Assembly (NCBI RefSeq): GCF_988243305.1
Contig: NZ_OZ547136.1
Direction: 5' to 3' (one strand)
DNA: 64,000 nucleotides
Shown one piece after another: positions 20,957 through 23,173 of this stretch. Every line of letters starts with the position of its first letter. The stretch's first letter is position 1. The notes below the pieces were generated by a model, which was not told the DNA's origin, searched no databases, and saw only the letters and a program-made list of their open reading frames with translations. Position numbers and translations under genes: made by a program.

Positions 20957-21055
20957 CTACGGCGCATTGCCGACGACCACCACCACACGCACGACGACCA
21001 CTGCGGCGGATGGCGCAGTTGGTAGTAGTTTTGCGTTGAACATGGAAGTAGTCAT
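20957..21055 (-). CDS. ivbL: ilvB operon leader peptide
   Basis: Hand translation of minus strand: MTTSMFNAKLLPTAPSAAVVVVRVVVVVGNAP* (32 aa, Val/Leu-rich control codons). Confidence 0.85.
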   Translation of the reverse strand: MTTSMFNAKLLPTAPSAAVVVVRVVVVVGNAP

Positions 21056-21184
21056 TGGGGACCTTGTTGGTTTTGTGTTTAACAATATTTATACAAGCAC
21101 AGCTTTACAGGGGAGACAATGGAAAATTTTTCAGCAAGGGAAAATTGAGGGGTTGATCACGTTTTGTACTGAATTGCAGGTAAC

Positions 21185-21335
21185 AAAAAACCCCGCCGGA
21201 GCGAGGTTTCGTCAGTCGCCTGCGGCTGGTAACCGCAAAGCACACTGTATTATGTCAACACTGAAAGTATACGTGTTCCGCGCAGAACGCGCAATTTCGG
21301 CACGAATTTTGACGTATTTAGTGCATAGTTGAGTA
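21185..21335 (-). ncRNA. istR: istR antitoxin sRNA region (IstR-1/IstR-2), approximate
   Basis: Position divergent from and upstream of tisB, next to the LexA box; terminator-like hairpin ccucgcuccggcgggguuuuuu at ~21182..21206 on the minus strand. Boundaries inferred from the known locus layout, not from sequence identity. Confidence 0.4.
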
Positions 21336-21365
21336 TCGATCACAGTTTGCGTTTTGTCTAAATAT

Positions 21366-21385
21366 TACTGTTTATTTATACAGTA
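21366..21385. promoter_or_regulatory. LexA box (SOS operator) of the tisAB/istR-2 locus
   Basis: TACTGTTTATTTATACAGTA: perfect CTGT-N8-ACAG palindrome ~235 nt upstream of tisB. Confidence 0.7.
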
Positions 21386-21619
21386 AACTTCTATAATATC
21401 ACTGTACGCAATGTGTTATGTGGGGGCCGCATCGTTACCCGGCGCACTAAGTCCTGGCTGAAACGGGTGGTGCCGTCAGCGCCTTAACCCCGCGTGAGCA
21501 CACTGTGTTATGTCAACAAGCACAACGTTTCTCCTTGAGATACCGCGTGCACAACAGCTGGCAACAGGCAGCGGAAAGGTACGTCAGCTGGCAGTGCTCC
21601 TGAACCACAGGAGACGCGT

Positions 21620-21709
21620 ATGAGCCTGGTGGATATCGCCATTCTTATCCTCAAACTCATTGTTGCAGCACTGCAACTGCTTGATGCTGTTCTGAAATAC
21701 CTGAAGTAA
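21620..21709 (+). CDS. tisB: SOS-induced type I toxin TisB (small membrane peptide)
   Basis: Hand translation MSLVDIAILILKLIVAALQLLDAVLKYLK* (29 aa); too short for the ORF track; followed by an intrinsic terminator. Confidence 0.85.
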   Translation: MSLVDIAILILKLIVAALQLLDAVLKYLK

Positions 21710-21730
21710 TTCAGATTCAAGTCGCACTAA

Positions 21731-21758
21731 AGGGGAGCGGGTAACCGCTCCCCTTTTA
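21731..21758 (+). terminator. tisB intrinsic terminator
   Basis: AGGGGAGCGGgtaaCCGCTCCCCTTTTAT hairpin plus T-run. Confidence 0.65.
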
Positions 21759-21988
21759 TATTTAGCGTGCGGGTTGGTGTCGGATGCGATGCTGATGCAT
21801 CTTATCCGCCCTACCATCCCTCCCGGCAACATTTATTGCCGCTTTTGTTTACATATTCTGCCGCTAAACAATTCCCCATTCCTGGCGTATATCTGGCTAA
21901 CATTTATCAATGTGATAGATTCCTCTCCCGCATTTATGGGAATGCGTAGTGACTTATTCTAATTATTTTTATAAAAGCATCCGTGATA

Positions 21989-23173
21989 ATGAAAAGGCAT
22001 AGAAACGTCAATTTGTTATTGATGTTGGTATTACTCGTGGCCGTCGGTCAGATGGCGCAAACCATTTATATTCCAGCTATTGCCGATATGGCGCGCGATC
22101 TCAACGTCCGTGAAGGGGCGGTGCAGAGCGTAATGGGCGCTTATCTGCTGACTTACGGTGTCTCACAGCTGTTTTATGGCCCAATTTCCGACCGTGTGGG
22201 TCGCCGACCGGTGATCCTCGTCGGAATGTCCATTTTTATGCTGGCAACGCTGGTCGCGGTCACGACCTCCAGTTTGACAGTATTGATTGCCGCCAGCGCG
22301 ATGCAGGGGATGGGCACCGGCGTTGGCGGCGTAATGGCGCGTACTTTGCCGCGTGATTTATATGAACGGACACAGTTGCGCCACGCTAACAGCTTGTTAA
22401 ATATGGGGATTCTTGTCAGTCCGTTGCTCGCACCGCTAATCGGCGGTCTGCTGGATACGATGTGGAACTGGCGCGCCTGTTATCTCTTTTTGTTGGTACT
22501 TTGTGCCGGTGTGACCTTCAGTATGGCCCGCTGGATGCCGGAAACGCGTCCGGTCGACGCACCGCGCACGCGCCTGCTTACCAGTTATAAAACGCTTTTC
22601 GGTAACAGCAGTTTTAACTGTTATTTGCTGATGCTGATTGGCGGTCTGGCCGGGATTGCCGCCTTTGAAGCCTGCTCCGGCGTGCTGATGGGCGCGGTAT
22701 TAGGGCTGAGCAGTATGACGGTCAGTATTTTGTTTATTCTGCCGATTCCGGCGGCATTTTTTGGGGCATGGTTTGCCGGACGTCCTAATAAACGCTTCTC
22801 AACGTTGATGTGGCAGTCGGTTATCTGCTGCCTGCTGGCTGGCTTGCTGATGTGGATCCCCGACTGGTTTGGCGTGATGAATGTCTGGACGCTGCTCGTT
22901 CCCGCCGCGCTGTTCTTTTTCGGTGCCGGGATGCTGTTTCCGCTGGCGACCAGCGGCGCGATGGAGCCGTTCCCCTTCCTGGCGGGCACGGCTGGCGCGC
23001 TGGTCGGCGGTCTGCAAAACATTGGTTCCGGCGTGCTGGCGTCGCTCTCTGCGATGTTGCCGCAAACCGGTCAGGGCAGCCTGGGGTTGTTGATGACCTT
23101 AATGGGATTGTTGATCGTGCTGTGCTGGCTACCGCTGGCGACGCGGATGTCGCATCAGGGGCAGCCCGTTTAA
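21989..23173 (+). CDS. emrD: MFS multidrug efflux pump
   Basis: ORF 21983..23173; start MKRHRNVNLLLMLV gives 394 aa; 12-TM MFS. Confidence 0.9.
   Translation: MKRHRNVNLLLMLVLLVAVGQMAQTIYIPAIADMARDLNVREGAVQSVMGAYLLTYGVSQLFYGPISDRVGRRPVILVGMSIFMLATLVAVTTSSLTVLIAASAMQGMGTGVGGVMARTLPRDLYERTQLRHANSLLNMGILVSPLLAPLIGGLLDTMWNWRACYLFLLVLCAGVTFSMARWMPETRPVDAPRTRLLTSYKTLFGNSSFNCYLLMLIGGLAGIAAFEACSGVLMGAVLGLSSMTVSILFILPIPAAFFGAWFAGRPNKRFSTLMWQSVICCLLAGLLMWIPDWFGVMNVWTLLVPAALFFFGAGMLFPLATSGAMEPFPFLAGTAGALVGGLQNIGSGVLASLSAMLPQTGQGSLGLLMTLMGLLIVLCWLPLATRMSHQGQPV

Follow-up and report, generated by a model that had tools for sequence, protein, structure and literature searches.

The ivbL leader peptide and attenuator upstream of ilvBN in an Escherichia coli genome

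The ivbL/ilvBN attenuator of Escherichia coli K-12 was reportedly described by Friden, Newman and Freundlich in 1982 (PNAS 79:6156). Its logic is that of the trp, his, leu and thr leaders, in which tandem control codons are combined with mutually exclusive hairpins chosen by ribosome position (PMC1183508), and ilvBN is counted among the operons controlled by attenuation (PMC1183508, PMC6123439). The ilvL leader of the E. coli ilvGMEDA operon (ilvLXGMEDA) resembles ivbL in being a 32-aa peptide rich in branched-chain residues that precedes an acetolactate synthase operon under multivalent attenuation (PMC6123439), and both leaders are GcvB targets (PMC9299463). The two differ in sequence and locus, however, and in their inputs: ilvL, with 15 branched-chain residues, responds to all three of Ile, Leu and Val, while ivbL, which lacks Ile codons, responds to Val and Leu. 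In K-12, added Val plus Leu repress an ivbL-gfp fusion, and replacing codons within ivbL shifts its amino-acid specificity (PMC11187965); Val/Leu-dependent read-through that requires ivbL translation has also been reported for this strain.

Here we describe the corresponding locus in the window, by which we mean the whole 64-kb stretch of DNA analysed. The interval 20957-21055 is the E. coli ivbL leader peptide gene followed by its attenuator, intact, ordinary and already known. Compared with the trp, his, leu and thr leaders, ivbL differs in that the 5' arm of its predicted antiterminator overlaps the stop codon and the two sense codons before it and, in our footprint model, would be free on untranslated RNA. 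The features of the locus and its surroundings are collected in Table 1.

Table 1. Features of the ivbL-ilvBN locus and its neighbours in window coordinates; nucleotide 1 of the leader numbering is window position 21085.
Feature	Window position	Strand	Leader nt	Description
ivbL CDS	20957..21055	-	AUG 31; UAG 127-129	32 codons + UAG; ATG 21055..21053, stop 20959..20957; from translation
Candidate -10 element TATAAAT	21087..21093	-		read from sequence only
CA-rich 5' UTR AAACACAAAACCAACA	21065..21080	-		identical to K-12
Shine-Dalgarno-like AAGG	21062..21065	-		6 nt before ivbL AUG; read from sequence, putative function
Leu control codons CUA CUA	21023..21028	-	58-63	codons 10-11
Val control region	20972..21001	-	85-114	codons 19-28: GUG GUC GUC GUG CGU GUG GUG GUG GUC GUC
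Upstream hairpin '1:2', presumed pause/protector	20987..21036	-	50-99	-17.5 kcal/mol, z = -3.0
Antiterminator	20917..20966	-	120-169	predicted fold, -21.9 kcal/mol, z = -3.0
Inner hairpin UGGAA-CAACACACG-AUUCC	20934..20952	-		CA-rich loop; enclosed by the antiterminator helices
Intrinsic terminator (attenuator)	20900..20933	-	153-186	AAAACCCCGCCGG CGCAAA CCGGGCGGGG UUUUU; -21.1 kcal/mol
ilvB, acetolactate synthase I large subunit	19163..20851	-	AUG 234	562 aa; ORF; Pfam TPP_enzyme_N, _M, _C; RefSeq annotation of identical DNA
ilvN, acetolactate synthase I small subunit	18869..19159	-		96 aa; ORF; Pfam ACT_AHAS_ss 1.9e-30
Island ORF, 435 aa	17309..18616	-		RefSeq: hypothetical protein
Island ORF, 496 aa	15564..17054	-		RefSeq: hypothetical protein
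istR small RNA	21185-21314	-		Rfam RF01400, 150 bits; just upstream of ivbL as in K-12
tisB type I toxin	21620-21709	+		upstream of ivbL as in K-12

The leader reading frame, its control codons and its alleles

Translation of the minus strand from 21055 to 20957 gives MTTSMFNAKLLPTAPSAAVVVVRVVVVVGNAP* in an intact frame; read as a plus-strand frame, the same interval contains 2 stops, and this reading was rejected. The preliminary description had given exactly this span, stop codon included, without stating the strand, and had called it a 32-aa ivbL leader. A profile search bears that identification out: residues 1-32 of the peptide align with positions 1-32 of the 32-position model NCBIfam NF007579 (PRK10214, 'ilvB operon leader peptide IvbL') at 80.1 bits (E = 8.1e-23), a full-length match above the curated cut-off of 60 bits that places the peptide in this equivalog family, and the frame is nearly identical to K-12 ivbL. 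The accompanying remark that the frame is too short for the ORF track was partly right, although the ORF list, with its minimum of 25 aa, does carry ivbL as a 42-aa TTG-extended ORF at 20957..21085.

ivbL adjoins ilvB-ilvN on the 5' side and on the same strand. The first regulated gene, ilvB, starts 105 nt past the ivbL stop (stop 20957, ilvB ATG 20851), and the order ilvN-ilvB-ivbL-istR-tisB-emrD is shared with K-12. The TisB sequence begins MSLVDIA... here and MNLVDIA... in K-12, an N2S difference. Between ilvN and uhpA, where the K-12 spacer is only 75 bp, some 3.4 kb of low-GC DNA (0.33-0.37 G+C) form an island at window 15500-18860. Its two ORFs gave no match in Pfam or PADLOC, no meaningful NCBIfam match and no PDB sequence match. 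The island is matched in 1110 of 5426 complete E. coli genomes at 80-99.9% identity, but the match covers 80% or more of its length in only 638 of these, and its divergence far exceeds that of the core on either side.

We aligned a 355-bp region, running from the istR side to the first ilvB codons, with K-12 MG1655, as the preliminary description had proposed for ivbL, and found 353 of 355 positions identical. Within the frame, 98 of 99 nt and 31 of 32 aa agree with K-12 ivbL (b3672), which has the same locus, the same neighbours and a 32-codon ORF, identifying the two as orthologues; the terminator, the antiterminator, the Val run and the 5' UTR are identical. One of the two differences is a base some 125 nt upstream of the ATG and the other is coding, changing codon 6 from CTC (Leu) in K-12 to TTC (Phe) here. 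The 355-bp region is matched in 5418 of the 5426 complete E. coli genomes, where it is annotated as ivbL and ilvB, and it is 100% identical in E. coli 118UI, in which RefSeq annotates ivbL.

The peptide contains 9 Val, all within the stretch VVVVRVVVVV and encoded by GUG and GUC only, and 2 Leu, both encoded by the rare codon CUA. Where 10 Val in 12 consecutive codons had been claimed, the count is 9 in 10, and still 9 in any 12; the description of these residues as Val/Leu control codons holds for the Val run and for the CUA CUA pair, with the correction that this allele has 2 Leu codons and not 3. In a scan of all six frames across the 64-kb window, ivbL is the sole site with at least 7 Val per 10 codons, the next best sites having 6, and the Val run is therefore beyond chance. 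A short frame with 9 Val in 10 codons and a CUA CUA pair, preceded at 6 nt by an AAGG that would serve its predicted translation, has the sequence properties of the attenuator class.

As the sole coding difference from K-12, and one that removes 1 of 3 Leu codons, Phe6 could be taken to alter the sensor input by lowering Leu sensitivity or adding a Phe input relative to K-12, all the more as the T at this position is present in 2448 of 5418 complete E. coli genomes (~45%, counted as exact matches to a 57-nt probe centred on that base). The same count means that Phe6 is a common natural allele in these sequences and not a lesion. Against an altered input, position 6 varies across other genera (M, L, N and Q are among its residues) whereas the CUA CUA pair is kept, the codon-6 base is unpaired in an internal loop of the predicted fold, and a stall at codon 6 would lie far upstream of the switch. 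Six other amino acids with codons present up to 5 times in ivbL had no significant effect in K-12, Phe not being among the six (PMC11187965). We consider a changed input very unlikely; conservation of the rare CUA CUA pair across genera, and not of the Leu6 codon, suggests that the Phe6 allele is functionally neutral.

Competing RNA structures and the position of the ribosome

Past the end of the leader ORF and ahead of the first structural gene, energy-based folding easily finds an intrinsic terminator of the form AAAACCCCGCCGG-CGCAAA-CCGGGCGGGGUUUUU, a G+C-rich stem of 13 pairs followed by U5, in agreement with the claim that an attenuator hairpin follows the leader. The antiterminator is predicted to form through the helix UGCGCCG (20966..20960) x CGGCGCA (20923..20917) and a second helix in which GGG (20957..20955, the last base of the stop codon plus two) pairs with CCC (20929..20927) of the terminator 5' arm. 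Its 5' arm, UGCGCCG UAGGG, draws on the stop and on the two codons that precede it, and its partner is the 5' arm and loop of the terminator. In the upstream hairpin, the Leu-codon segment is predicted to pair with the codons from Ala18 through Arg23, that is, with the first Val codons; by analogy with other attenuators of this class, such a hairpin might pause RNA polymerase and keep it in step with the ribosome. The three structures have z-scores of -2.3 to -3.0. Terminator and antiterminator share nt 157-169 (20929..20917) and are predicted to be unable to coexist; computed on one and the same RNA (nt 114-186), the energy is -30.5 kcal/mol in the terminator state and -25.5 kcal/mol in the antiterminator state. 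Fold prediction, which had been proposed as a check together with the integrity of the frame, thus yields mutually exclusive structures downstream of an undisrupted ORF. The exclusivity is one of prediction; the arms are invariant, so that covariation is uninformative about it.

A simple promoter and terminator scan flagged a single weak promoter-like site and, as its only terminator, that of istR. It missed the attenuator terminator, probably because a one-base bulge splits the stem and neither half fits the loop and tail rules. Searching 20000-22500 against Rfam at E <= 1 gave no leader family (Leu_leader, His_leader, Thr_leader, Trp_leader); an ivbL model appears to be missing from Rfam, and for that reason the result does not count against an attenuator. 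Hits to STnc310, P6 and Termite-leu lay on terminator-like hairpins far below their gathering scores and were set aside as chance matches.

Equilibrium folding of the full leader with a masked ribosome footprint gave the terminator at every ribosome position, with pair probabilities of 0.77-0.88. As this calculation never discriminated between ribosome positions, we replaced it as a test of the switch by folding RNA that ends before the terminator 3' arm. Since equilibrium always favours the terminator, the switch would have to be kinetic, as in other attenuators, and read-through would rest on kinetic trapping.

In the replacement model, we took RNA up to nt 171 and folded the part 3' of the ribosome, whose 3' edge was assumed to lie at A-site +12. 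With the A-site at codons 15-19, the predicted energies are -24.8 to -29.1 kcal/mol, and at 16-19 the G-rich Val codons also pair with the C-rich terminator arm. At codons 20-26 they are -21.9 to -23.3 kcal/mol, with the antiterminator itself (-21.9) intact. The energy falls to -16.5 kcal/mol at codon 27 and -8.3 kcal/mol at codon 28, and at codon 33, the stop, only -0.4 kcal/mol is left and the antiterminator is gone. Stalling within or ahead of the Val run would thus leave the antiterminator free, whereas a ribosome at the stop codon would cover its 5' arm. On untranslated RNA the model also leaves the antiterminator free, which would predict read-through without translation, unlike in the trp operon. 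The on/off pattern between the Val run and the stop codon was repeated in 35 of 35 Enterobacterales leaders (the window plus 34, among the matches listed).

We conclude that transcription of ilvBN in E. coli is almost certainly attenuated at ivbL by a ribosome-mediated mechanism. The leader RNA would start at a promoter just upstream and carry the 32-codon ORF with its two rare CUA codons followed by 9 Val in 10. With Val-tRNA and Leu-tRNA in ample supply, the ribosome would reach the UAG and cover UGCGCCG-UAGGG, the antiterminator 5' arm; the CCCCGCCGG...CCGGGCGGGG-U5 hairpin would then form, and RNA polymerase would stop before ilvB. If charged tRNA-Val (or tRNA-Leu) runs short, the ribosome would stall in or before the Val run, and the free 5' arm could pair with the terminator 5' arm and loop once these are transcribed, allowing polymerase to continue into ilvBN. 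We infer the kinetic race and the footprint geometry from the folding model. The Val/Leu response in vivo is reported for the K-12 sequence (PMC11187965), from which the window differs at 2 of 355 bases. With ilvB and ilvN 3' on the same strand, a match to the IvbL family and competing folds predicted, the proposal that ivbL is the regulatory input of ilvBN is supported.

Conservation of the leader across Enterobacterales

We retrieved orthologous leaders from species-representative genomes with a degenerate DNA pattern for VVVVRVVVVV, obtaining at least 120 stretches. At least 37 of these immediately precede an IlvB homologue, in genomes of Escherichia, Citrobacter, Enterobacter, Klebsiella, Kluyvera, Leclercia, Pluralibacter, Cedecea, Serratia, Yersinia, Pectobacterium, Brenneria, Dickeya and Morganella; 35 leaders were aligned. 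For the Val run itself, conservation among these leaders is a circular result, the retrieval pattern having required it. Outside the run, the ORF, the CUA CUA pair and the GNAP-stop tail are kept upstream of ilvB (35 Enterobacterales leaders, among the matches listed). Of the two Leu control positions, the first encodes Leu with a wobble A throughout (35 of 35 leaders), and the second encodes Leu in 31 of 35 and has a wobble A in 32 of 35. The AGG of the Shine-Dalgarno-like element is kept in most orthologues.

The terminator and both arms of the antiterminator are invariant or nearly so across the 35 aligned leaders, from Escherichia to Yersinia, Dickeya and Morganella, and 10 of the 13 terminator pairs never vary. 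Because of this invariance the covariation test is uninformative for the outer helices of the terminator and antiterminator, in which no covariation was scorable among the 35 leaders. Compensatory changes do occur at three pairs of the inner hairpin (35 species), and at the top of the upstream hairpin stem one pair formed by two synonymous sites covaries (C-G in 23 leaders, U-A in 10, A-U in 1). In the antiterminator arm, the wobble bases of the GCG and CCG before the stop are constant in all 35 leaders. For invariant four-fold codons, mean wobble entropy is 0.34 bit in the leader, while such codons in the ilvB genes of these genomes average 1.43 bit (Mann-Whitney p = 2e-4, one codon being double-counted in most leaders).

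Nine of the leaders, from Yersinia, Pectobacterium, Serratia, Brenneria, Morganella and Dickeya, have a GUG aligned with the E. coli ivbL AUG (CCC-GUG-A...), and judging from this alignment their leader peptide probably starts with GUG. Some of these have longer Val runs, with 10-11 Val, UAA in place of UAG, and an extra AC before the conserved GGG.

Upstream elements, GcvB and the meaning of the locus

Our simple promoter scan of the window did not find the ilvB promoter and left the candidate -10 element TATAAAT unflagged. CRP control is indicated by the title of the 1982 paper by Friden, Newman and Freundlich. A CRP-like sequence at 21146-21161 has 3 mismatches, and such sequences occur in the window at the chance rate (204 found versus 215 expected), leaving CRP control unsupported by the sequence here. 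Elsewhere in the window, a perfect CRP consensus (TGTGATTCGATTCACA, 0 mismatches) is present at 59391-59406 on the plus strand, about 75 nt upstream of a plus-strand ORF at ~59482 that encodes MNILHICVTSKWFNIDNKIVDHRP. We take this peptide to be TnaC, the leader peptide of the tryptophanase operon; if it is, the window would contain another known leader-peptide regulator besides ivbL.

Regulation of ivbL and ilvB has also been described at the post-transcriptional level. Translational fusions of both are repressed by the small RNA GcvB via its seed region R1, the effect on ivbL being weak, and the stretch between ivbL and ilvB is listed as a GcvB R1 target (PMC9299463). A GcvB site has been predicted near the ivbL AUG, RNase E cleavage sites have been mapped to the ivbL-ilvB intergenic region, and GcvB lowers RNase E cleavage and raises the ivbL transcript level (PMC11347164). 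From the sequence, we would place the reported R1 site of the ivbL 5' UTR at 21065..21080 and the reported intergenic site at the CA-rich loop of the inner hairpin, 20934..20952; the CA-rich stretches at 21080..21065 and 20949..20939 have the same bases as in K-12.

These unchanged stretches, together with the published repression through R1 and the effect of GcvB on cleavage in the spacer, are what one would expect if the main control were post-transcriptional, with GcvB pairing with the CA-rich 5' UTR and the CA-rich ivbL-ilvB loop and, along with RNase E, setting translation and stability of the mRNA. Such control, however, leaves the Val run, the CUA CUA pair and the invariant competing helices unexplained, and the weakness of GcvB repression of ivbL (PMC9299463) speaks against it too. 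We regard it as extremely unlikely to be the main control: GcvB is an added layer and not a replacement for attenuation.

That the Val-rich ORF is a chance frame and the hairpin an ordinary terminator or stability element that senses no translation is scarcely credible, for although equilibrium folding favours the terminator at any ribosome position and the outer helices of terminator and antiterminator show no covariation, the Val density is found once in six frames of 64 kb, the ORF with its CUA CUA pair and GNAP-stop tail is maintained 5' of ilvB in 35 Enterobacterales, the peptide scores above the curated cut-off of the IvbL equivalog, codon swaps alter the amino-acid response in K-12 (PMC11187965), and read-through in K-12 is already reported to depend on Val/Leu and on ivbL translation.

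Attenuation at ivbL may have a further consequence, if an improbable one. The terminated leader is about 180 nt long and carries two CA-rich R1 sites, through which it might also titrate GcvB in trans as a decoy; this reading draws on these sites together with the reporter data and chimera counts of PMC9299463 and PMC11347164. If true, it would tie branched-chain amino acid sufficiency to the GcvB regulon, the leader being abundant when Val and Leu are plentiful.

The significance of the ivbL finding beyond correct annotation is small. Standard ORF tracks miss this textbook attenuator on account of its length, and flagging it correctly marks the regulatory input of ilvBN. To this the comparison across genera adds a small point, namely that the antiterminator arm GCG CCG UAG GG is frozen even at its synonymous sites.
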